Positions 1-54,007 of a DNA stretch of 64,000 bases are shown piece by piece; positions within the stretch are counted from its first letter, which is position 1, and each line of letters opens with the position of its first letter. The notes beneath the pieces were generated by a model that did not search any database, had not been told where the DNA came from, and was given only the letters and a program-made list of their open reading frames with translations. The stretch is from NCBI RefSeq assembly GCF_058153355.1, contig NZ_CM177019.1, one strand, 5' to 3'. A program made the translations under genes and the position numbers.

Positions 1-318
<318 letters not shown>

Positions 319-764: not shown

Positions 765-3669
<2,905 letters not shown>

Positions 3670-3762
3670 ACAACGCCGAAGGTGTTTTGGCGGATTGAGA
3701 GAAGATTTTCAGCCTGATACAGATTAAATCAGAACGCAGAAGCGGTCTGATGAAACAGAATT

Positions 3763-3882
3763 TGCCTGGCGGCCTTAGCGCGGTGGTCCCACCTGACCCC
3801 ATGCCGAACTCAGAAGTGAAACGCCGTAGCGCCGATGGTAGTGTGGGGTCTCCCCATGCGAGAGTAGGGAACTGCCAGGCAT
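3763..3882 (+). rRNA. rrf: 5S ribosomal RNA (copy 1)
   Basis: 120 nt tgcctggcggcc...gggaactgccaggcat, canonical E. coli 5S. Confidence 0.95.
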
Positions 3883-3894
3883 CAAATTAAGCGT

Positions 3895-3970
3895 GCTGAT
3901 ATGGCTCAGTTGGTAGAGCGCACCCTTGGTAAGGGTGAGGTCCCCAGTTCGACTCTGGGTATCAGCACCA
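3895..3970 (+). tRNA. thrV: tRNA-Thr (anticodon GGU) distal to 5S
   Basis: 76 nt gctgatatggctcagttggtagagcgcacccttGGTaagggtg...atcagcacca; the distal tRNA-Thr plus second 5S arrangement is, as I recall, specific to rrnD. Confidence 0.93.
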
Positions 3971-4007
3971 CTTTTTAGGTTAAAGTTCGGCAAATTAGAA
4001 AAGAATT

Positions 4008-4127
4008 GGTCTGGCGGCAGTAGCGCGGTGGTCCCACCTGACCCCATGCCGAACTCAGAAGTGAAACGCCGTAGCGCCGATGGTAGTGTGGGGTCTCCCC
4101 ATGCGAGAGTAGGGAACTGCCAGACAT
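4008..4127 (+). rRNA. rrf: 5S ribosomal RNA (copy 2, variant ends)
   Basis: 120 nt, near-identical to copy 1 except 5' ggtctggcggcag and 3' ctgccagacat; exact 5' end uncertain by 1 nt. Confidence 0.9.
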
Positions 4128-4132
4128 CAAAT

Positions 4133-4174
4133 AAAACAAAAGGCTCAGTCGGAAGACTGGGCCTTTTGTTTTAT
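4133..4174 (+). terminator. rrn operon terminator T1-like hairpin
   Basis: aaaacaaaaggctcagtcggaagactgggccttttgtttt: GC stem-loop followed by T-run immediately after 5S. Confidence 0.85.
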
Positions 4175-4307
4175 TTGATGTTTGTCGGTGAACACTCTCC
4201 CGAGTAGGACAAATCCGCCGGGAGCGGATTTGAACGTTGCGAAGCAACGGCCCGGAGGGTGGCGGGCAGGACGCCCGCCATAAACTGCCAGACATCAAAT
4301 CAAGCGA

Positions 4308-4335
4308 AAGGCCATCCGAAAGGATGGCCTTTTTG
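4308..4335 (+). terminator. rrn operon terminator T2-like hairpin
   Basis: aaaggccatccgaaaggatggccttttt; perfect 8 bp stem, GAAA loop, T-run; preceded by a duplicated 5S 3' fragment (ctgccagacatcaaat at 4285-4300). Confidence 0.85.
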
Positions 4336-4356: not shown

Positions 4357-5115
4357 TTAATGGATCACCTGCGATAAAAATGCCCTCGTACGCTCTGATT
4401 TAGGATGCGCAAAAAACTCATCCGGTGCAGCTTGTTCCACTATCTCCCCACGATCCATAAAAATCACCCTGTCAGCGACGGTTCGTGCAAACCCCATCTC
4501 ATGTGTTACACACAACATTGTCATACCCGACTGCGCCAGCCCAATCATCGTATCCAGCACTTCTTTCACCATCTCCGGATCGAGCGCCGATGTGGGCTCA
4601 TCAAACAACATAATTTTCGGCTTCATACACAGCGAGCGCGCAATGGCAACGCGTTGCTGCTGACCACCAGAAATCTGTCCGGGAAACTTCTGGGCATGTT
4701 CGGCAATTCTTACTCGCTCAAGATAATGCATCGCCAGAGCTTCAGCCTCTTTCTTAGGCATCTTGCGTACCCAAATCGGTGCCAGGGTACAGTTCTGTAG
4801 AACGGTCAGATGAGGGAAGAGATTGAAATGCTGAAAGACCATTCCCACTTCCTGCCTGACACGCTCAATATTGCGGATATCTTCATTAAGCTCGATGCCA
4901 TCTACCACGATTCGTCCCTGTTGATGTTCTTCCAGATGATTAATACAGCGAATGGTTGTCGATTTCCCCGAACCAGAAGGGCCACACAGAACGATTCGTT
5001 CTCCCGGTTGTACGGTTAAATTAATATTTTTCAGAACATGGAATTGTCCATACCATTTATTGACGTTTTCCAGCGTAATCATCGCGTTAGCAGGTTGCAG
5101 TAAAATTTGGCTCAT
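4357..5115 (-). CDS. yhdZ: Polar amino-acid ABC transporter ATP-binding protein
   Basis: 252 aa; Walker [10 protein letters not shown], signature [13 protein letters not shown], Walker [12 protein letters not shown]; K-12 synteny next to rrnD. Confidence 0.9.
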
Positions 5116-5122
5116 AGTGTCC

Positions 5123-6226
5123 TCAATGCGGTGTACGCCCGGTGTTAAAACGTTTTTCCAGATGTTGGCTATAACGTGACATGCTGAAACAGAAGATCCA
5201 GTAAATCAGTGCGGCGAAAACATAACCTTCCGTCGACATACCCAACCAGGCGGGATCGACAGTTGCCTGCTGCACACTACTGAAGAGATCGAACAGGCCG
5301 ATAATGATCACCAGACTGGTATCTTTAAAAAGTGCGATGATGGTATTCACCAGCCCAGGAATCACCAGCTTCAACGCCTGTGGCAGAATAACCAGCCCCT
5401 GGGTTTTCCAGTAACCCAACGCCAGAGACTCTGCCGCTTCATATTGCCCTTTAGGTAGCGCCTGTAATCCGCCTCGCACGACTTCCGCAACATATGCTGA
5501 CTGAAACAGGATCACGCCAACCAGCGCGCGGATCAATTTGTCGATACTGGTGCCTTCTGCCATAAACAACGGCAGCATGACCGAAGACATAAACAGAACG
5601 GTAATCAGCGGCACACCGCGCCAGAACTCGATAAAAATGACCGATAAGATACGCACAATCGGCATATGGGAGCGGCGACCTAACGCCAACAGGATCCCCC
5701 ACGGTAGCGCCCCCGCAATCCCAACTGATGCAATAATTAAAGTGAGCGTCAGCCCGCCCCATTGCCTGGTTTCAACCCGTTCAAGACCAAGAAACCCGCC
5801 ATACATCAGCCACCAGACAATCAGTGGGTAAATCACCGCCCAGACCGCAATATAGCGACCGCGATGCGGGAGTATTTTCCAGAACATTGGTGCGATAGAA
5901 ACAAGGCCAATCAGTAATGCCAGGTTAATTCGCCAGCGTTGGTCGTGTGGGTAAAGCCCATACATAAACTGACCAAATCGTTCGTGGATGAAGACCCAAC
6001 AGGCACCTGCTTTTGTGCAGTCGGCACGCGTTGAGCCAACCCAGTTAGCCTGCAAAAATGCCCAGTTCAGCAATGGTGGGATCAGTTCCCACATCAACCA
6101 TATGCAGCCAATAGTCAGCAGGCTATTGCTCCAGCTGGAGAACAGATTTTTCCGCACCCACACCATCGCGCGGCTTGTGTTATGGCTCGCCGGGCGCGGG
6201 GGATGAGACAGCAATACTTTTGTCAT
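5123..6226 (-). CDS. yhdY: Amino-acid ABC transporter permease
   Basis: Multi-TM protein with EAA-like loop; start set at second ATG (AAGGAG 5 nt upstream) giving 367 aa. Confidence 0.85.
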
Positions 6227-20268: not shown

Positions 20269-21225
20269 TCAGTGCTGCTGCAAAAAGTCTTCAATGTCAG
20301 TCAGTGAGGATATCCCTTCCATCGGACCTTGCCGCATTACCGCGAGCGCGCCGCTGGCATTTGCATATTGCAGCGCCTTGTGTGCCGGGATACCGGATAA
20401 GAAAAGAGTGACAAACGTTGCGCCAAAGCAGTCGCCTGCACCCGTTGGATCGATTATTTCGATATCGTGGCCTGCAACATGCTTGGCGTGTAATGTTCCG
20501 TTTTTAATCTTGTAATAGCTGGCCCCACGCTGGGCGCGTTTTATCGCCACATGTTTTACGCCGCCGTGGAGAAGATCGCTAACAATCTGTTCTTCTGACA
20601 GATTTTTGTGACGCGCGAAGAAAGGGAGTTCGCTTTCGCTGGGGATAAAAATATCCGTATATTCAATCAAATAATCGAGAGCCTGCGCCATTTCAGGAAT
20701 ACTCAGCATCTCTTTGCGAATATTGGGATCGAAAGAAACGGTGCCGCCAGCCGATTTGATCGTCGTTATTGCTTTACGCATGACATCGATCATGCGAAAT
20801 GAGAACAATGATGAGCCCACAATATGCAGATGGTTACACTGTTTTAGCAGATCCTTATCAATGTGCTCGGCAGTAAACAAACCGCAGGCGCTGTTAGGGA
20901 TATTAAAGACGAAATCCCGCTGCTGGGGATTTTGATAACTCACGAATGCCGTACCTGTTACGGCATTGTTCATAACATGGATCCCATCGGTAATGACACC
21001 TTCATGACGGAGGCGCTCTATAATGAGTCGGCCAAAATCATCATTACCAACACATCCGAAGAAGATGGCCCGATGGGACAGTTTTGCCACCTGAGCAGCA
21101 AAAATTGCTGGTGCACCGCTGGGAAATGGCCCGATAAACTCCCCAGGCTGAGTGAATTTTTGATGTGGGTTGCGGGACAAAAACTCGGCCAGCAATTCGC
21201 CCATAGCGCAGATAGTTATTGTCAC
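20269..21225 (-). CDS. PfkB-family sugar kinase (island kinase 1)
   Basis: C-terminal DPTGAGDCFGATF and N-terminal GxxxGGAP-like PSGAPAIF motifs; paralogous to ORF 26760-27722; start set at GTG 21225 (GAGG 6 nt upstream; aligns with N-terminus of paralog) instead of ORF-track 21279. Confidence 0.8.
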   Translation of the reverse strand: MTITICAMGELLAEFLSRNPHQKFTQPGEFIGPFPSGAPAIFAAQVAKLSHRAIFFGCVGNDDFGRLIIERLRHEGVITDGIHVMNNAVTGTAFVSYQNPQQRDFVFNIPNSACGLFTAEHIDKDLLKQCNHLHIVGSSLFSFRMIDVMRKAITTIKSAGGTVSFDPNIRKEMLSIPEMAQALDYLIEYTDIFIPSESELPFFARHKNLSEEQIVSDLLHGGVKHVAIKRAQRGASYYKIKNGTLHAKHVAGHDIEIIDPTGAGDCFGATFVTLFLSGIPAHKALQYANASGALAVMRQGPMEGISSLTDIEDFLQQH

Positions 21226-21235
21226 AAAACCCCTC

Positions 21236-22066
21236 TCATTCCTGAAGCCTTTCGCGATTGGACCAGGTAAAGCACTCATTACTGGTATAAAGGATAACGA
21301 AATCAGCCGACTGCAATTGTTGCTGATATTGTTCGTTAATGCTGCGGCTGACGATCACATTTTCTGCCTGATGCAAATGCCCGATAGCAGCCGTTGATGG
21401 CGCAGGATCGGCGGCAACGATAACTGTCTTATTCTGGGCATGATCGAAACAGAGCTGCCAGGCAGCGGCAAGTCTGGGAACGTTGATATTTAAAGTACCA
21501 TCAGCATCCAGATGGCTGATTTCCAGAATGCTGTGTGTAATGGTGAAATGCTGAAGTGCCTGTTCGAGCGGTTTTCCGGCCAGTGCGGTGTCGGGGCGCA
21601 GCATTTCACTGCCAGCCAGTATTATTTCGCCATCAATAAACTGATTTGCCAGCAGCGCATGTTCGGGATCGTTGGTGATCAGACGCAGTTTTTTCACTTC
21701 GCTGAGCAATGGAATGATCTTACGGCAGATTGTCCCATGTCCAAGAAATAGCGTGTCACGATCCCGAATTAACCGTGCGCAATGTCGTGCTATTTCCATT
21801 TGTTGTGCCAGAGACAATGGCGCGATCGGTTGTATCGCTTCTGGTTCAGAGGAGAGTGGTGTCGCAATAGCACCGCCAAATGATCGCTTTAAATATCCCT
21901 GTTGCTCCAGATAACTGAGATCGCCGCGGATCGTCACGCCAGAGACACCAAGTTGCGCAGATAAGTCATCAACTTTGATTTCACCCTGGGCGGCAACAAT
22001 TTCTGCAATTTTTAATCTGCGTTTCAGTAGGTTAGACGATTTTCTCGGCACGTTAACACTCTTCAT
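21236..22066 (-). CDS. DeoR-family transcriptional regulator
   Basis: 276 aa; N-terminal HTH RRLKIAEIVAAQGEIKVDDLSAQLGVSGVTIRGDLSYLEQQGYLKR typical of DeoR/GlpR/AgaR, C-terminal sugar-phosphate sensor domain; stop is 10 nt before kinase 1 start. Confidence 0.85.
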   Translation of the reverse strand: MKSVNVPRKSSNLLKRRLKIAEIVAAQGEIKVDDLSAQLGVSGVTIRGDLSYLEQQGYLKRSFGGAIATPLSSEPEAIQPIAPLSLAQQMEIARHCARLIRDRDTLFLGHGTICRKIIPLLSEVKKLRLITNDPEHALLANQFIDGEIILAGSEMLRPDTALAGKPLEQALQHFTITHSILEISHLDADGTLNINVPRLAAAWQLCFDHAQNKTVIVAADPAPSTAAIGHLHQAENVIVSRSINEQYQQQLQSADFVILYTSNECFTWSNRERLQE

Positions 22067-22239
22067 TGGCCTTTAATGCGTAACACTATAGCCCCTTGTA
22101 TTTTTCTTTGAAAGTTACCCTTCAATAATATCGACAATTCGAAAATAAAAGCATAGGGCAAAAATTGCAGCAAAAATAGCTTAATGCATTGAAAATAAAT
22201 GAATATTTCCATATCTGTCCAAAGGCATCATTGGTTTCA

Positions 22240-22254
22240 TTTTCAAAGTGAAAA
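22240..22254. promoter_or_regulatory. Candidate operator palindrome TTTTCA-AAG-TGAAAA
   Basis: Perfect 6-3-6 inverted repeat in divergent intergenic region between DeoR gene and aldolase operon. Confidence 0.4.
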
Positions 22255-22337
22255 ATAAATTAAGTTATTTTTTGTAAGTTATTTTGATGATATTCGACAT
22301 GCGTCACGCTTTTTACCGCTTTTGCTGTGCTAGTTTG

Positions 22338-22352
22338 CTTTCAAAATGAAAG
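22338..22352. promoter_or_regulatory. Candidate operator palindrome CTTTCA-AAA-TGAAAG
   Basis: Perfect 6-3-6 inverted repeat about 55 bp upstream of aldolase ATG; related copy ttcattttgtaaggtgaa at 22368-22385. Confidence 0.4.
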
Positions 22353-22379
22353 TGAAGATTCTCTTTCTTCATTTTGTAA

Positions 22380-23261
<882 letters not shown>

Positions 23262-23296
23262 GACGTTGTACCCTACAAAAACAATGAGGATTGTTT

Positions 23297-24187
23297 ATGA
23301 AAAATATTAAATTACTTGGTTCCGCTATGATGGTGAGCCTGGCATTGTTCTCGCAAAGTTCATTGGCAAAAGAGTATAAAATTGGAGCTTCATTATTAAC
23401 ACAGCAACACCCTTTTTATATCGACCTCGCAAATGCAATGAAAGAAGAGGCGAAAAAAGACAATGTCAATTTAAGTGTCTCTATTGCCAATCAGGATTTA
23501 AACAAACAGCTTTCTGATGTTGAGGATTTTATTACTAAAAAGGTAGATGCCATTATTATCTCTCCGGTCGATTCGAAAGGTGTCCAGGCAGCGATAATTA
23601 AAGCCGATAAGGCTGGTATTCCCGTTATCACCGTTGACGTTGCCGCGGAAGGCGTTCCGGTCGTATCGCATGTTGCGACCGATAATTACGCGGGAGGCGT
23701 TGAAGCTGGTAAGTTAATGGGCAAACTTTTGAATGGTAAAGGTACTGTAGCCATTATTTCTTATCCTGCACTACAATCGGTGGTTGCACGCGTTGATGGC
23801 TTTAAGAAAGGATTAAGCGATACGCCGGATATTAAAATTGTTGCGGAACAGCCTGGTATTACGCGCGCTGAAGCGTTAACGACTACGCAAAATATTATGC
23901 AGGCCAACGCCAACCTGAATGGTCTGTTTGGCTTTGGTGATGATGCGGCGCTGGCGGCGGTTATAGCGGCGAAATCTGCGCATAACGACAACATCAAAAT
24001 CATTGGTTTTGATGGTATGAAAGAAGCGCGAGATGCCGTTGATAGTGAAAAAACGTTTGCGGCCGTGATTCGGCAATATCCCGATCAAATGGGTGCTAAA
24101 GCCATAGATGCCGCTGTTGATCACCTCAATGGTAAACCGGTAGAGAAAATGATCCCGGTACAACCCGGCGTTTATACAGGTAAATAA
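23297..24187 (+). CDS. Periplasmic sugar-binding protein (RbsB-like)
   Basis: 296 aa from ATG 23297 (GAGGA 6 nt upstream); signal peptide MKNIKLLGSAMMVSLALFSQSSLA; PBP type I fold similar to ribose-binding protein. Confidence 0.82.
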   Translation: MKNIKLLGSAMMVSLALFSQSSLAKEYKIGASLLTQQHPFYIDLANAMKEEAKKDNVNLSVSIANQDLNKQLSDVEDFITKKVDAIIISPVDSKGVQAAIIKADKAGIPVITVDVAAEGVPVVSHVATDNYAGGVEAGKLMGKLLNGKGTVAIISYPALQSVVARVDGFKKGLSDTPDIKIVAEQPGITRAEALTTTQNIMQANANLNGLFGFGDDAALAAVIAAKSAHNDNIKIIGFDGMKEARDAVDSEKTFAAVIRQYPDQMGAKAIDAAVDHLNGKPVEKMIPVQPGVYTGK

Positions 24188-24247
24188 TAAACATCTTCAT
24201 TTCACAACAAAACGTTATCGACGTTTTGTTGTGACACCGAGGTCATT

Positions 24248-25669
24248 ATGACGGATGTTATTCTTGATGTTTCGCATATTGCGAAGACATTTGGTCATGT
24301 TCAGGCATTAAAAGATATTACACTCTCTTTACGTAAAGGGCGGGTACATACTTTATTAGGTGAGAATGGTGCCGGTAAATCGACATTAATGAAAATATTG
24401 GCCGGTGTTTATCCGCCAACCCAGGGAACAATAAAACTACGTGGTGAAACTATCACAATTAATAATCCGCAGCATTCACGTCAGTTAGGGATTGCTATTA
24501 TTTTTCAGGAACTGAGCCTGAGTAATAATATGACCGTGGCGGAAAATATTTATGCCAATAATGAACCGCGACGTTTTGGCATTATTAACGATAAAAAAAT
24601 GCTCGCAGATTGCCAGAATCTCCTCGCGGAACTGGGCATCCCACTGGATCCGCTGGAAATGGTCGGCAATATGTCGATGGCACATAGGCAACTGGTAGAA
24701 ATTGCCAAAGCCTTAAGCTATGCAGCAGATGTCGTGATTATGGATGAACCGACATCTTCGCTAAGTGATAATGAAGCAGAGATTCTGTTTAACATTATTG
24801 AGAAATTAAAGCAGCGAGGTTGTGCGGTTATTTATATCTCTCATCGCATGGATGAAATTATGCGGATTTCAGATGATATTTCGGTGATCCGCGACGGTGA
24901 GTATATCGCTACGCATGAAAAGAAAAACAGTGATATCCAGCATTTGATTGCCCAAATGGTTGGTCGGGAAATGAAAAATATTTGGCCAGCACGTCTTGGG
25001 GAAAAGCCGGATGAAAATATTCCTGCAAAACTGGAAGTAAAAAACCTTTCCCATCCTTCGCTTTTTAAAGAGGTCAGTTTCGCTGTGCGTCCGGGGGAAG
25101 TCCTCGGATTTTTTGGCCTGGTGGGGGCCGGGCGTTCCGATGTGATGAAGGCGCTATTTGGCCTCATTTCGTATCACGGGACTGTGTTGATTGATGGTAA
25201 GGAAGTCAGGATCGCTAATCCCAAACAGGCCATTGATCATGGCATTGCATTTGTGACCGAAAACCGCAAGGAAGAAGGGTTAGTGCTGATGCACGACGTC
25301 AATATGAACACGCACCACGTGGCGTTTCAATATAACGCTTCGCGGATGGGACTCATCAATCACCGACAAGAAGAGACGAAGACGCTGCAATCTATTGCCA
25401 GAATGAATACTAAAGTGAGTTCTGTACATCAGGCTGTGGGGGCGCTAAGCGGCGGTAATCAACAGAAAATCGTGTTATCGAAGTGGCTGGAGAAAACCCC
25501 ACGTATTTTATTGCTCGATGAGCCTACGCGCGGAGTGGATGTCGGCGCAAAATTTGAAATCTATAACGTGATACGTCAACTGGCTGCGGCAGGAACAGCA
25601 ATTATTCTGGTGTCCTCTGAACTGCCTGAAGTCATGGCACTTAGCGATCGTCTGGTGGTTAATGCGTAA
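24248..25669 (+). CDS. Sugar ABC transporter ATP-binding protein, two-domain RbsA-like; apparent frameshift truncates C-terminus (remaining 28 codons continue in the next frame to 25748)
   Basis: Two nucleotide-binding domains (Walker A GENGAGKST and GLVGAGRSD, signature LSGGNQQK, Walker B LLLDEPTRGVD); ORF stops after ...LSDRLVVNA, while the next frame reads MRNKTIADIYSCENLTQTQVMTAATGVR and ends directly before the permease ATG. Confidence 0.8.
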   Translation: MTDVILDVSHIAKTFGHVQALKDITLSLRKGRVHTLLGENGAGKSTLMKILAGVYPPTQGTIKLRGETITINNPQHSRQLGIAIIFQELSLSNNMTVAENIYANNEPRRFGIINDKKMLADCQNLLAELGIPLDPLEMVGNMSMAHRQLVEIAKALSYAADVVIMDEPTSSLSDNEAEILFNIIEKLKQRGCAVIYISHRMDEIMRISDDISVIRDGEYIATHEKKNSDIQHLIAQMVGREMKNIWPARLGEKPDENIPAKLEVKNLSHPSLFKEVSFAVRPGEVLGFFGLVGAGRSDVMKALFGLISYHGTVLIDGKEVRIANPKQAIDHGIAFVTENRKEEGLVLMHDVNMNTHHVAFQYNASRMGLINHRQEETKTLQSIARMNTKVSSVHQAVGALSGGNQQKIVLSKWLEKTPRILLLDEPTRGVDVGAKFEIYNVIRQLAAAGTAIILVSSELPEVMALSDRLVVNA

Positions 25670-25748
25670 TAAAACGATTGCCGATATTTATTCATGTGAA
25701 AATTTAACGCAGACACAGGTAATGACCGCTGCAACAGGAGTACGTTAA

Positions 25749-26738
25749 ATGACAGAGAAAACTCTTGCCAGTCCGAAACCTTCGGAAATTCCCATTGCAA
25801 ATAATTTTAAAAAAGTCTTCAGGCAATATGGCGGTATCCTCAGTGGAATGGTGGTGTTAATCATTCTGTTCAGTTTTATTAATGACAGTTTTTTTACTGC
25901 CAATAACATTACTAATATTATTCTTCAGGTTTCGATAATTGCAATTACCGCCTATGGAATGACTTATGTACTTTTGCTTGGCGATATTGATTTATCGGTC
26001 GGTTCAACCATTGCATTGATTGGCACATTTGCTGCGCTTGGGGCTTCATGGGGAATTCCATTTATTTTATTGGTCCCATTATCCATTATTGTAGCCCTGG
26101 CTCTGGGGATGATAAATGGTGGCTTGACGGCTATAGCGGGTATCCCTTCGTTTATTGTCACCGTTGCTACAATGGGGATCTTCCGTGGTATCGCTTATAT
26201 AGTGACCGATGGTATGCCCATCATGATTAAAGATGATGCCTTTCTGGCGCTGGGGAATGGAGAATTTCTCTATATACCGATTCCTATCTGGATATTAATC
26301 ATCTTATTGCTGATTAACCACTTCATTCTTACTAAAACAACCTTTGGACGAAAAATTTATATCACTGGTGGTAATAAAGAAGCGGCAGTCTATTCAGGGA
26401 TAAATGTCACCCGCTTGAAAATTAAAGTCTTTATGATTACAGCCGTGCTGGCAGGTATCAGCGGGATGATCCTCGCCTCACGCCTCTATTCCGGGCAACC
26501 GAATTCCGCGTTGAGCTACGAACTGGATGCTATTGCCGCGGCTGTACTGGGAGGCACCAGCCTGAACGGCGGCTATGGAACCGTGGTGGGGACGGTGATC
26601 GGCGCATTAACCATCGGCGTTATTAATAATGGCATGAACTTAATGAATGTTCCCTATTTTTACCAGATGGTGGTTAAAGGATTAGTCATTCTTGTAGCCG
26701 TTTATTTTGACGTAAGAAATAAAAGAAAACGCAGCTAA
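25749..26738 (+). CDS. Sugar ABC transporter permease (RbsC-like)
   Basis: 329 aa, about 10 TM segments, start codon abuts the frame-restored stop of the ATPase. Confidence 0.82.
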   Translation: MTEKTLASPKPSEIPIANNFKKVFRQYGGILSGMVVLIILFSFINDSFFTANNITNIILQVSIIAITAYGMTYVLLLGDIDLSVGSTIALIGTFAALGASWGIPFILLVPLSIIVALALGMINGGLTAIAGIPSFIVTVATMGIFRGIAYIVTDGMPIMIKDDAFLALGNGEFLYIPIPIWILIILLLINHFILTKTTFGRKIYITGGNKEAAVYSGINVTRLKIKVFMITAVLAGISGMILASRLYSGQPNSALSYELDAIAAAVLGGTSLNGGYGTVVGTVIGALTIGVINNGMNLMNVPYFYQMVVKGLVILVAVYFDVRNKRKRS

Positions 26739-26759
26739 TCATTTCAAGGAATTAATCAT

Positions 26760-27722
26760 ATGAGTAAGGTCTTCACAATTGGAGAAATTCTTGTTGAAAT
26801 TATGGCGAGTAAAATCGGCCAGCCATTTGATCAACCAGGTATCTGGAACGGCCCTTATCCCAGTGGTGCGCCCGCTATTTTTATCGACCAGGTGACACGT
26901 CTTGGCGTTCCGTGCGGCATCATTAGCTGTGTGGGGAATGATGGCTTTGGTGATATTAATATACATCGTTTGGCTGCTGATGGTGTGGATATCAGGGGGA
27001 TTTCAGTCTTACCTCTGGAAGCCACCGGTAGCGCCTTTGTTACTTATCATAACTCTGGCGATCGTGATTTTATTTTTAATATCAAGAATGCCGCTTGCGG
27101 TAAATTATCGGCGCAGCATGTTGATGAAAATATTCTGAAGGACTGTACCCATTTTCATATTATGGGTTCATCCCTGTTTTCATTCCATATGGTAGACGCA
27201 GTAAAGAAAGCGGTAACCATTGTAAAGGAGAATGGTGGCGTTATTTCTTTCGACCCTAATATTCGGAAAGAGATGCTCGATATTCCAGAAATGCGTGACG
27301 CCCTCCACTTTGTTCTTGAGTTAACAGATATCTATATGCCCAGCGAGGGAGAAGTGTTGCTCTTGTCGCCACACTCGACACCGGAGCGTGCAATCGCTGG
27401 TTTTCTTGAAGAAGGTGTTAAAGAGGTGATTGTGAAGCGCGGCAATCAAGGTGCCAGTTACTACTCCGCGAATGAGCAGTTTCATGTTGAGAGCTATCCG
27501 GTGGATGAAGTTGACCCGACCGGTGCGGGAGACTGCTTTGGTGGCGCGTGGATTGCCTGCCGCCAGCTAGGGTTTGACGCCCATCGGGCATTACAATATG
27601 CCAACGCCTGCGGTGCACTGGCGGTAACCCGACGTGGCCCAATGGAGGGAACGTCTCGCCTTGCGGAAATCGAAGCGTTCATCCAGCGCCATGACATGTC
27701 CATTCGGGAAGCAGCACAATGA
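26760..27722 (+). CDS. PfkB-family sugar kinase (island kinase 2)
   Basis: 320 aa; DPTGAGDCFGGAW anion-hole motif, PSGAPAIF N-terminal motif; paralog of kinase 1. Confidence 0.82.
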   Translation: MSKVFTIGEILVEIMASKIGQPFDQPGIWNGPYPSGAPAIFIDQVTRLGVPCGIISCVGNDGFGDINIHRLAADGVDIRGISVLPLEATGSAFVTYHNSGDRDFIFNIKNAACGKLSAQHVDENILKDCTHFHIMGSSLFSFHMVDAVKKAVTIVKENGGVISFDPNIRKEMLDIPEMRDALHFVLELTDIYMPSEGEVLLLSPHSTPERAIAGFLEEGVKEVIVKRGNQGASYYSANEQFHVESYPVDEVDPTGAGDCFGGAWIACRQLGFDAHRALQYANACGALAVTRRGPMEGTSRLAEIEAFIQRHDMSIREAAQ

Positions 27723-28765
27723 AAAACGAAATTTGGTCGTGGATTGGCGATCTCTCGCAGGTTGCCGGAATTAAACACTATGAGTTACGTAGTGGCAGAT
27801 CAAAGGGGACAGAAGCGTTTGATGTCCGTACTGGTGCGGGATTGGCATTTACGGTGGTAAAAGATCGCGCGCTGGATATTGCATGGGCCAGCTACAAGGA
27901 CACTGCGCTCTCTTTTATCACCCCCAACGGCATTGTCGCGCCTGCTTTTTTTGAGCCGCAGGGCAATGGATTTTTGCGTAGCTTCTACGCGGGATTACTG
28001 ACCACATGCGGACTTAGCTACATTGGGACGCCCTGTGAGGATGAAGGAGAAACGCTGGGATTACCCGGACGTTTGGCTGCGACACCAGCGGAAGAGGTGG
28101 GATATCGCACAGAACGGACCGACGACGGCATTGAATTTGTCATCAATGGCAAATTACGGGAAACGCGATTGTTCGGTGAAAATCTGACGTTGGAAAGGAC
28201 CATTCGCTGCCGCTATGGCGAAAATGTGCTGCGCATTGAAGACAAGGTGACTAATCATGGTTTCACCCGCCAGCCGCTGCAAATTCTTTATCACTTTAAT
28301 TACGGCTGGCCTTTATTATCGCCACAGGCAGAAATCTTGCTGTCGGCTAAAAGCGTAACGCCACGAACCCCGCATGCGGCGGAAGGGTTAACCAGTCATC
28401 TGGAGATTTGTACCCCACAGCCCGGTTTTGACGAGCAGGTTTACTATCTCACGTTGAATAGCGACAGTCAGGGGATGAGTAAAGTTGCGCTGGTGAACGC
28501 CGAACTGGGGTGGGGAATTTACGAGAAATTCGACACCATGCAGCTACCCAACTTTATCCAGTGGAAAAATTTAGGCGCGGGTGAATATGTTATGGGGCTG
28601 GAGGTCAGCAATAGTTTTCCTGACGGTCGTGATAAAGAACGAGCGCAGGGGCGTCTGCCCTTTATAGAGCCAAGGGAAACAAAGACATACTGCTTTGAGC
28701 TGGGAATTGTTGATGGCGATGCTGAAATTAGCGCGTTGAAAGCGGAAATTGCAGGCTACCGTTAG
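27719..28765 (+). CDS. Uncharacterised protein, possibly aldose-1-epimerase/mutarotase-like (DUF-type)
   Basis: 348 aa, no recognisable catalytic motif by eye; start overlaps kinase 2 stop by 4 nt (ATGA), so translationally coupled; family assignment is a guess. Confidence 0.5.
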   Translation: MKNEIWSWIGDLSQVAGIKHYELRSGRSKGTEAFDVRTGAGLAFTVVKDRALDIAWASYKDTALSFITPNGIVAPAFFEPQGNGFLRSFYAGLLTTCGLSYIGTPCEDEGETLGLPGRLAATPAEEVGYRTERTDDGIEFVINGKLRETRLFGENLTLERTIRCRYGENVLRIEDKVTNHGFTRQPLQILYHFNYGWPLLSPQAEILLSAKSVTPRTPHAAEGLTSHLEICTPQPGFDEQVYYLTLNSDSQGMSKVALVNAELGWGIYEKFDTMQLPNFIQWKNLGAGEYVMGLEVSNSFPDGRDKERAQGRLPFIEPRETKTYCFELGIVDGDAEISALKAEIAGYR

Positions 28766-52581: not shown

Positions 52582-54007
52582 TAATGCCAGTCAGTTAAGC
52601 AACTGACTGGCTCTTTTTCGGGGCTGTGGGGTATTTCCAGGGCCTCTCCTTTACCACTCTCGGGAAGGCCCTTTCCCTTCTTGTCGGTAATTTCACAAGT
52701 TGTCCCATACTTGCAAGATCGCGCATCAGCTCCGGTATACGTCCCGGTGAAGCGCCCTGCAATGTCATCAGCATTCTCATCACCATTCCGCATGATTCTG
52801 AGAAACTCAGTTGATTCGGCCAGTAACCTTTCAGATGTTCCGCCATTTTAATCATCTGATATCTCACCAGATTATAAGCCAGTAAGACACCCCACAGCTC
52901 TTGCTCCACAAGCTCCGGCTTTTTACTTCTCAGCGTCAGCCTGCTCAGTTGCATCGTCTGTTTTATCTCCCTGTATCCCAGTTCGATTTCCCAGCGATGA
53001 CTGTACAGATCCGCCATTTCTCCTCCGGGGAAGCGCATGGCGTCCGTCATCGACGTCAGCAGATGGCAGACTTTTCCTTTGCGCGTCACGGTCAGCAGGC
53101 GGGCTGTCACTTCATTTCCCAGTCCCGGCCACTTTTTTCGTGCCTGCGGGCTGGTTTTCAGCTTCACCAGATGATCGCCTTTACCCAGTTTTCTGATCTC
53201 TTCATATTGCGCTCCCTTTCTGAGAGGTATCATCCAGTGGCGGTGTTCTCCCGCCAGGCTCCAGGCATTTAACAGTCCCAGTGAGTAATAACCTTTATCC
53301 ATTAACGTCAGAGTGTTATCGCCGGTTTGTTCTATAAGTTGCTCAGCAAGCTCATTTTCGCTGTTCTTCATCGTGCCGAAGGCTGCAGCCGTCAGCAGAT
53401 GGCTGGTCAGTTCCATCTGGCAGACCATTTTGACCTGCGGGTAGAGCGCCGGGTTCCCGGCATGTGTCTGGCGGGGGAAGGCTGCATCGTTCTCTGGTGT
53501 ATCCGGTGTGCGCCAGAACACACCATCGATGGCCAGCAGGGTCAGGCCGCACCAGTGCGGATGCGGCGTGGCGTTATGCCAGAGCTGCGCTGTTTTCGTG
53601 AACACGCGGCGGACAGCCTCACTTCCCAGGCGCTGGCGGGCCTGAATAACGGCACTGGGGGCAACGAAGGGGCGATTGCCCGGCAGCATGATGTCCAGGC
53701 GATTCACAATCTGGTGAAGAGGTTCTTTACGCTCAAGCGCCATGCCAACAATACACCAGACCATCATTTCGAGGGGAAGACGGCGCTTGCGTAGCGTTAC
53801 AGTACCTGATTCGGCAAGGCAACGAGAGATGAGTTCGGGGTCGAGGTAATCCCCCAGAGAAGTCAGTGGGTTACGCAGAGAATCGTAACGGGATACCAGA
53901 TCAAGAGCCTGTCCAATGTGCATAAAAAAATCCGGAAACAAGTGAGCGTTTCCGGATTCTTACACAGCCACTGGATCGGTCAACTGATCCTTAACTGATC
54001 GGCATTA
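52582..54007 (-). mobile_element. IS4 insertion sequence, complete (1426 bp)
   Basis: Terminal 18 bp inverted repeats taatgccagtcagttaag (left) / reverse complement of cttaactgatcggcatta (right), 16/18 match; single DDE transposase ORF; flanked by 12 bp direct repeats. Confidence 0.9.
52595..53923 (-). CDS. IS4 transposase
   Basis: 442 aa from ATG 53923 ([40 protein letters not shown]...), DDE transposase; length and N-terminus match my recollection of IS4 InsG. Confidence 0.88.

Follow-up and report, generated by a model that had tools for sequence, protein, structure and literature searches.

In Escherichia coli K-12, the distal part of the rrnD ribosomal RNA operon and its neighbour are annotated as rrlD, rrfD (b3274), thrV, rrfF (b3272) and yhdZ. 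This end of the operon, with its two 5S rRNA genes, was reportedly sequenced by Duester and Holmes in 1980. A full-text search of the literature for rrfF returned strain lists only. The distal gene of K-12, rrfF, reads TGTCTGGCGGCAG...CTGCCAGACAT and has a U-A pair between positions 3 and 117, whereas rrfD and the other 5S genes of E. coli have C3-G117 there. All of these genes have in common the three-helix junction fold and the flanking motifs AGAAUU and CAUCAAAU, which we take to be the RNase E processing sites of 5S precursors.

Among the compensatory changes of bacterial 5S rRNA, switches between AU and GC pairs by way of G.U intermediates are the commonest kind, and they often affect helix I (Cheng et al. 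2012, PMC3433437). The difference between the 5S genes of rrnD belongs to the same class of change and lies in the same helix, and in both cases the wobble intermediate is rare and A.C is almost never seen. The published switches are between orthologs in different species, whereas the one described here is between paralogs within one operon.

The window analysed here is a stretch of 64,000 nucleotides that begins inside an rRNA operon. A sequence-only reading of this stretch had proposed a second 5S rRNA gene at 4008–4127 whose end changes compensate each other.

The rrnD operon in the window

The first gene in the window is the 3’ end of a 16S rRNA gene (rrsD, 1–318, plus strand; Rfam SSU_rRNA_bacteria, 316 bits, model positions 1216–1533), which is cut by the window start. 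It is followed on the same strand by two spacer tRNA genes, tRNA-Ile(GAU) at 387–463 and tRNA-Ala(UGC) at 506–581, each found by both ARAGORN and the Rfam tRNA model, and by a full-length 23S rRNA gene (rrlD, 765–3669; Rfam LSU_rRNA_bacteria, 2865.9 bits). Downstream of the 23S gene are a proximal 5S gene (rrfD, 3763–3882, plus strand), a tRNA-Thr(GGU) gene (thrV, 3895–3970, plus strand; found by ARAGORN and identical to K-12 thrV when aligned), and the distal 5S gene (rrfF, 4008–4127, plus strand), so that thrV lies between the two 5S genes. After the terminators comes a convergent neighbour, an ORF of 252 amino acids at 4357–5115 on the minus strand, which is annotated in K-12 and in the best-matching genomes as yhdZ, the ATPase of an amino-acid ABC transporter. 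The spacer between the 16S and 23S genes also has a match to the Rfam model StyR-44 just upstream of the 23S gene (649–757, 124.9 bits); StyR-44 is a described element of enterobacterial rrn spacers.

Because the gene order, as assembled from Rfam, ARAGORN and ORF evidence, and the yhdZ neighbour match those of K-12, the operon was assigned to rrnD. The gene at 4008–4127 lies downstream of 23S, 5S and tRNA-Thr(GGU) genes and adjoins yhdZ, and judging by this placement it is almost certainly rrfF, the distal (second) of the two 5S genes in rrnD of E. coli. A 701-base query around it had a match in 5425 of 5426 complete E. coli genomes, and its best full-length matches are annotated with two 5S genes, tRNA-Thr and yhdZ. 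The gene would be co-transcribed after 23S, rrfD and thrV, with the transcript ending at the terminators T1 and T2.

Comparison of the two 5S genes

Both 5S genes matched Rfam RF00001 over their full length – the distal gene with 90.2 bits (E 2.6e-20 to 6e-19, model positions 1–120 of 120) and the proximal gene with 93.2 bits (E 9e-20), against a gathering score of 38. The Rfam 5S model spans E. coli positions 3–118, so the ranges reported for the two genes are 3765–3880 and 4010–4125. A match of this strength is far beyond chance, and the second 5S gene had been placed correctly by the sequence-only reading. Its 5’ end, which had been left uncertain by 1 nt, is now settled: K-12 rrfF is 120 nt long and aligns base for base with the window gene, and position 1 of the distal copy is therefore 4008.

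The proximal copy reads TGCCTGGCGGCCT...CTGCCAGGCAT and the distal copy reads GGTCTGGCGGCAG...CTGCCAGACAT. Pairwise alignment of the two genes with 10-nt flanks identified five differing positions in 120 nt. From the proximal to the distal copy, these are T>G at position 1 (4008), C>T at position 3 (4010), CT>AG at positions 12–13 in loop A (4019–4020) and G>A at position 117 (4124). The three end changes had been recognised from the letters of the sequence, but the list was incomplete, with the loop A dinucleotide overlooked. The alignment to the proximal copy had no insertions or deletions in the distal one, and from position 14 to position 116 the distal copy is identical to the proximal copy and to the K-12 5S genes, with helices II–V and the internal loops intact.

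Loop A positions 12–13 are CU in the window rrfD, CG in K-12 rrfD and AG in rrfF. The window rrfD has one difference from K-12 rrfD (b3274), at position 13: it reads CU at 3774–3775 (CG in K-12), and the U13 variant is also found in other E. coli strains.

The window rrfF agrees with K-12 rrfF in its place (after thrV, and before T1/T2 and yhdZ), in its length, and in 119 of 120 bases, including U3, A12, G13 and A117. The one unlike base is position 1, which is T in K-12 and G in the window. The flanks also differ, at spacer base 3994 (A versus G) and at bases 4175 and 4178 of the T1 stem. A comparison with the 5S genes of K-12 had been proposed on the basis of the sequence; it found the same U3 and A117 in rrfF, and a different position 1.

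Compensation of the 3:117 pair in helix I

In the covariance-model alignment, U 4010 and A 4124 stand opposite each other in the outermost paired columns of helix I, its first and its last, where copy 1 has C and G. The pair 4010:4124 is canonical, and no non-canonical flag was raised at the 3:117 columns in either copy. C3-G117 in the proximal copy has become U3-A117 in the distal copy, and both this alignment and minimum-energy folding agree with the proposal that the C-to-U change at 3 and the G-to-A change at 117 keep a base pair in helix I. Unconstrained minimum-energy folds gave one architecture for all copies, with helix I kept in each: it has 10 bp in copy 1, in K-12 rrfD and in K-12 rrfF, and 9 bp in copy 2. 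The helix I that closes the three-way junction is present in copy 2, where the probability of the 3:117 pair is 0.999.

The energies of the alleles were computed on one common fold. The predicted values were −50.7 kcal/mol for the standard C3-G117, −48.6 kcal/mol for U3-A117 (K-12 rrfF), −48.0 kcal/mol for the U3.G117 wobble and −43.5 kcal/mol for the C3.A117 mismatch, with −47.8 kcal/mol for the window allele, which has G1 as well as U3-A117. The C3.A117 mismatch also frays the neighbouring pairs, with the probability of 2:118 falling to 0.63. Given these allele energies and the fraying caused by C.A, the 3:117 pair is, in the folding model, truly compensated – the route through U.G is predicted to be nearly neutral and the route through C.A costly. 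With U.G predicted to be almost as stable as U-A, the thermodynamic case for selection would gain little from the second change.

In an alignment of 38 proximal and distal 5S genes from Enterobacterales, no pair of helix I other than 3:117 had both of its bases changed. Among the distinct rows of this alignment, the pair was UA in 12, CG in 10 and UG in one, and it was unpaired in none. Its covariation score of 0.112, compared to 0.067 for shuffled alignments, was reached by none of 500 shuffles, and the signal collapsed once the partners were slid by 1–3 columns.

Alleles of rrfF in E. coli genomes

Allele counts were made in 5426 complete E. coli genomes using short queries, in which a central mismatch kills the megablast seed, so that a match is near-exact. 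The rrfF-specific spacer followed by TGTCTGG (U1, U3) was found in 5258 genomes, and the same spacer followed by GGTCTGG, the window version (G1, U3), in 8 genomes. U3 is thus present in the rrfF context in at least 5266 of the 5426 genomes. A flank-independent 30-mer with A117 was found in 5364 genomes (98.9%), at 5415 places; 51 E. coli genomes have the A117 3’ end at two places.

The T1 flank is common to other operons and polymorphic between a long and a short terminator form, and G117 was therefore counted with a synthetic 148-mer consisting of the rrfF spacer, U3 and G117. It matched at 100% in 27 genomes, a lower bound in that genomes with the short terminator would rank lower. These U3.G117 assemblies, at least 27, include BL21(DE3), TOP10, Origami2 and E. 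coli C. Laboratory strains, whose K-12 ancestor has A117, account for many of these 27 assemblies, and some of the cases may be polishing artefacts or recent gene conversions.

The rrfF spacer followed by TGCCTGG (C3) had a single true case, the K-12 derivative PG20180060, in which A117 is kept and a C.A mismatch results. Of the other two matches to this query, one belongs to a different operon and one is the assembly of strain H1, which has N at exactly positions 3 and 117. The H1 and PG20180060 cases, too, may be gene conversions or polishing artefacts.

With U-A near-fixed, U.G rare and C.A almost absent, the distribution of alleles is the one predicted by a constraint on pairing. By these counts U3-A117 is an already known allele of rrfF that is ordinary in E. 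coli (ca. 97–99% of genomes).

U3-type 5S genes across Enterobacterales

A scan of 100,044 species-representative genomes for GTCTGGCGGCNNTAGCGCGGTGG yielded at least 120 stretches, and all of those among the matches listed were from Enterobacterales. The matches listed include 119 full-length U3-type 5S genes, of which 109 have A117 and 10 have G117, which forms a wobble pair; C and U are absent from position 117, and the pair is open in none of the genes. Because the 3’ base is outside the search pattern, the association of U3 with A117 was not built into the search. As the sample was picked by the U3 pattern, it shows that U3 goes with A117, and is not a measure of how often distal genes revert to C3-G117.

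Among the matches listed, a U3 gene follows tRNA-Thr in Escherichia, Salmonella, Citrobacter, Enterobacter, Leclercia, Lelliottia, Kluyvera, Kosakonia, Klebsiella indica, Trabulsiella, Silvania, Pseudocitrobacter, Photorhabdus and others. The full order of a C-G 5S gene, tRNA-Thr and a U-A 5S gene was found at a minimum of 22 loci, from 10 named genera and one Enterobacteriaceae MAG; the preceding 5S gene was C3-G117 in the 22 listed loci that reach far enough upstream. Salmonella, Citrobacter, Enterobacter, Leclercia, Kluyvera, Kosakonia and Photorhabdus are among the genera with this order. Some Morganellaceae (Providencia, Xenorhabdus and Arsenophonus) have the same U3-A117 pair as rrfF, but their 5S genes differ from it in loop A and in bases of helices IV and V. 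In these three genera the pair is found at several loci per genome, none of them after tRNA-Thr among the matches listed.

Persistence of U3-A117 in the distal copy

The interior of the distal gene (positions 4–116) differs from its own proximal copy at a mean of 0.9 positions, versus a mean of 2.9 for the distal copies of other genomes, and in all of the 19 genomes compared the proximal partner is the nearer of the two. A genus-specific loop A dinucleotide is common to both copies in 14 of the 19. This closeness to the proximal copy and this sharing of the loop A dinucleotide indicate that the 5S interior is under concerted evolution. From Escherichia to Photorhabdus, the 3:117 pair has nevertheless remained C-G in proximal genes and U-A in distal ones (loci L018–L125).

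The block of homology between the two 5S copies of the window is 137 nt long (3754–3890 and 3999–4135), and positions 3 and 117 are each ca. 12 nt inside its edge. RecA-dependent exchange usually requires a longer stretch of perfect homology than ca. 12 nt for its initiation.

We infer both an evolutionary path for the pair and a reason for its escape from homogenisation. U3-A117 would be an old compensated substitution, with the nearly neutral U3.G117 wobble as its most likely intermediate. Positions 3 and 117 would be kept paired by purifying selection on helix I, and gene conversion would homogenise the 5S interior but seldom reach these two positions, since each is so near an edge of the homology block. 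On the 3’ side, the T1–T2 region is ca. 94% identical to that of another operon; because homology runs on through T1–T2, the argument from the edge of homology is clean for position 3 only. The homology with other operons on the 3’ side is in keeping with the greater number of genomes that have U3.G117 (at least 27) than C3.A117 (one). The retention of A117 may need selection, or may simply reflect a low rate of conversion.

A role for selection could be put more strongly. U3-A117 would then be a paralog-specific signature that selection has actively kept from Escherichia to Photorhabdus despite the concerted evolution of the interior, as the mark of a distinct 5S isoform or of a requirement in tRNA-Thr-5S processing, and we consider this improbable. 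Slightly less probable still is that the U3-A117 distal 5S is a functionally specialised isoform under positive selection across Enterobacterales, serving for example the processing of the tRNA-Thr-5S precursor or a subpopulation of ribosomes. In favour of such an isoform, the paralog-specific pair persists from Escherichia to Photorhabdus beside an interior homogenised in every one of the 19 genomes, and A117 is kept in nearly all E. coli though its 3’ flank is homologous to other operons. The swap of one pair near the end of helix I, on the other hand, changes the predicted stability by ca. 2 kcal/mol; U3-A117 is not tied to the distal position in Providencia, Xenorhabdus and Arsenophonus; the sample across species was ascertained on U3; and proximity to the homology edge explains the persistence without selection for a difference between the copies.

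Integrity of rrfF and the base at position 1

The G at 4008 replaces a U that pairs with A119, and this change is uncompensated. Because G1 cannot pair with A119, helix I of the window gene has 9 bp and not 10, at a predicted cost of ca. 0.8 kcal/mol. G1 was found in 8 of the 5426 genomes: Z0117EC0005, E200086, E400634, E500002, E600003, 100117, 100248 and AST85. These are separate assemblies, with identical flanks, of strains from different hosts and countries. G1 goes together with further changes specific to the lineage, at 3994, 4175 and 4178. Since it recurs in eight separate assemblies and is linked to these changes, G1 is a real, rare, lineage-specific polymorphism.

Of 23 distinct sequences from Enterobacterales, 9 likewise lack the 1:119 pair, so its loss is no sign of decay, and the upstream motif AGAAUU is unchanged in copy 2. 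From the folding model, G1 is predicted to be harmless, with no functional effect. As far as its sequence goes, position 1 is the only unusual base of the window rrfF.

That copy 2 is a decaying duplicate, a pseudogene left by tandem duplication of a 5S gene and tolerated given the seven other 5S genes, is very improbable. It is an eighth 5S gene, it scores 3 bits below copy 1, and the terminal pair has been lost through G1 in the window lineage; against this, it has no indels, its sole change within a helix other than that terminal pair is the compensated one at 3:117, and its allele, near-fixed among the 5426 E. coli genomes, is found in many genera; the terminal pair is also open in the 9 sequences noted above. 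The identity of positions 14–116 to copy 1 argues that the gene is not decaying, and the sole uncompensated change is at 1:119. Copy 2 most likely encodes a working 5S rRNA, and its operon position and conservation suggest that it is expressed and incorporated into ribosomes. The sequence-only reading had likewise preferred a functional 5S allele to a decaying pseudogene, and on the sequence evidence that part of it stands; the allele is not peculiar to the window but is the standard allele of rrfF, already present in K-12.

It is barely credible that the differences, especially G1, stem from errors of sequencing or assembly: polishing errors are common in rRNA genes, which are repeated, the H1 assembly has its Ns at just the two paired positions, and several laboratory-strain assemblies have U3 with G117 where the K-12 ancestor has A117, but more than 5200 assemblies and the K-12 reference have U3 and A117, and G1 has identical flanks in all eight assemblies and is linked to changes in the spacer and terminator.

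Terminators and surroundings

Two terminators follow rrfF on the plus strand. T1 (4142–4176) is a hairpin, GGCTCAGTC/GACTGGGCC, followed by a T-rich run. In the window lineage its stem is part of a 35-nt inverted repeat (4116–4150 and 4155–4189, 89% complementary), in which the final 12 nt of the 5S gene, together with its 3’ trailer, pair with sequence farther downstream. This stem is lengthened by T4175 and A4178, two bases specific to the lineage, where K-12 has C and T. T2 (4310–4334) is a hairpin, GGCCATCC/GGATGGCC, followed by TTTTT, and is conserved in K-12 and in loci with the short form of the region.

Just before the T2 hairpin, the 3’ end of the 5S gene is repeated. The sequence AACTGCCAGACATCAAAT is found in its original place at 4115–4132 and again 168 bp downstream at 4283–4300, on the plus strand (direct-repeat family D2, 90% over 30 nt), and the repeat, like the 5S end, carries the A (at 4292). 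In the short form, found in E. coli SCPM-O-B-8794 and in E. whittamii, rrfF is joined directly to T2, and the repeat is absent from the short-form loci L033 and L086. Only 4073 of the 5426 E. coli genomes cover at least 80% of the window between 3700 and 4400. The repeat is best explained by a 168-bp duplication, or by a deletion between direct repeats. In another operon, of strain 3359, both the 5S end and the repeat have G.

A functional covariation of A4292 with U3 was considered and rejected, as the repeat is absent after most of the listed U3-type genes elsewhere and in some Escherichia. Sub-threshold Rfam matches to MicC, STnc40, RtT and RNAI at or between the terminator hairpins were far below the gathering cut-offs and were disregarded.

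Two accessory elements lie farther along the window. A 1.4-kb IS4 element is located between degS and mdh at ca. 52582–54007, with its transposase ORF at 52595–53941 on the minus strand; it is absent from Z0117EC0005 and present, with the same flanks, in IAI39, CE10, VR50 and others. An 8.4-kb island between accC and yhdT (ca. 20270–28765) encodes a sugar ABC transporter, two sugar kinases, an aldose 1-epimerase, a class II tagatose-bisphosphate aldolase and a DeoR regulator. This island was found in 1422 of the 5426 E. coli genomes, with a best identity to the window of 98.8%.

Significance

The result confirms that a textbook case of a compensated base pair had been recognised correctly in raw sequence read with no tools, and that rrnD has an intact distal 5S gene; otherwise it matters little. 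The U1>G change in rrfF is rare and might be useful for marking a lineage. The 3:117 pair, which is paralog-specific in many genera while the interior of the gene is homogenised, illustrates on a small scale how gene conversion between rRNA genes may be limited near the edge of a homology block.
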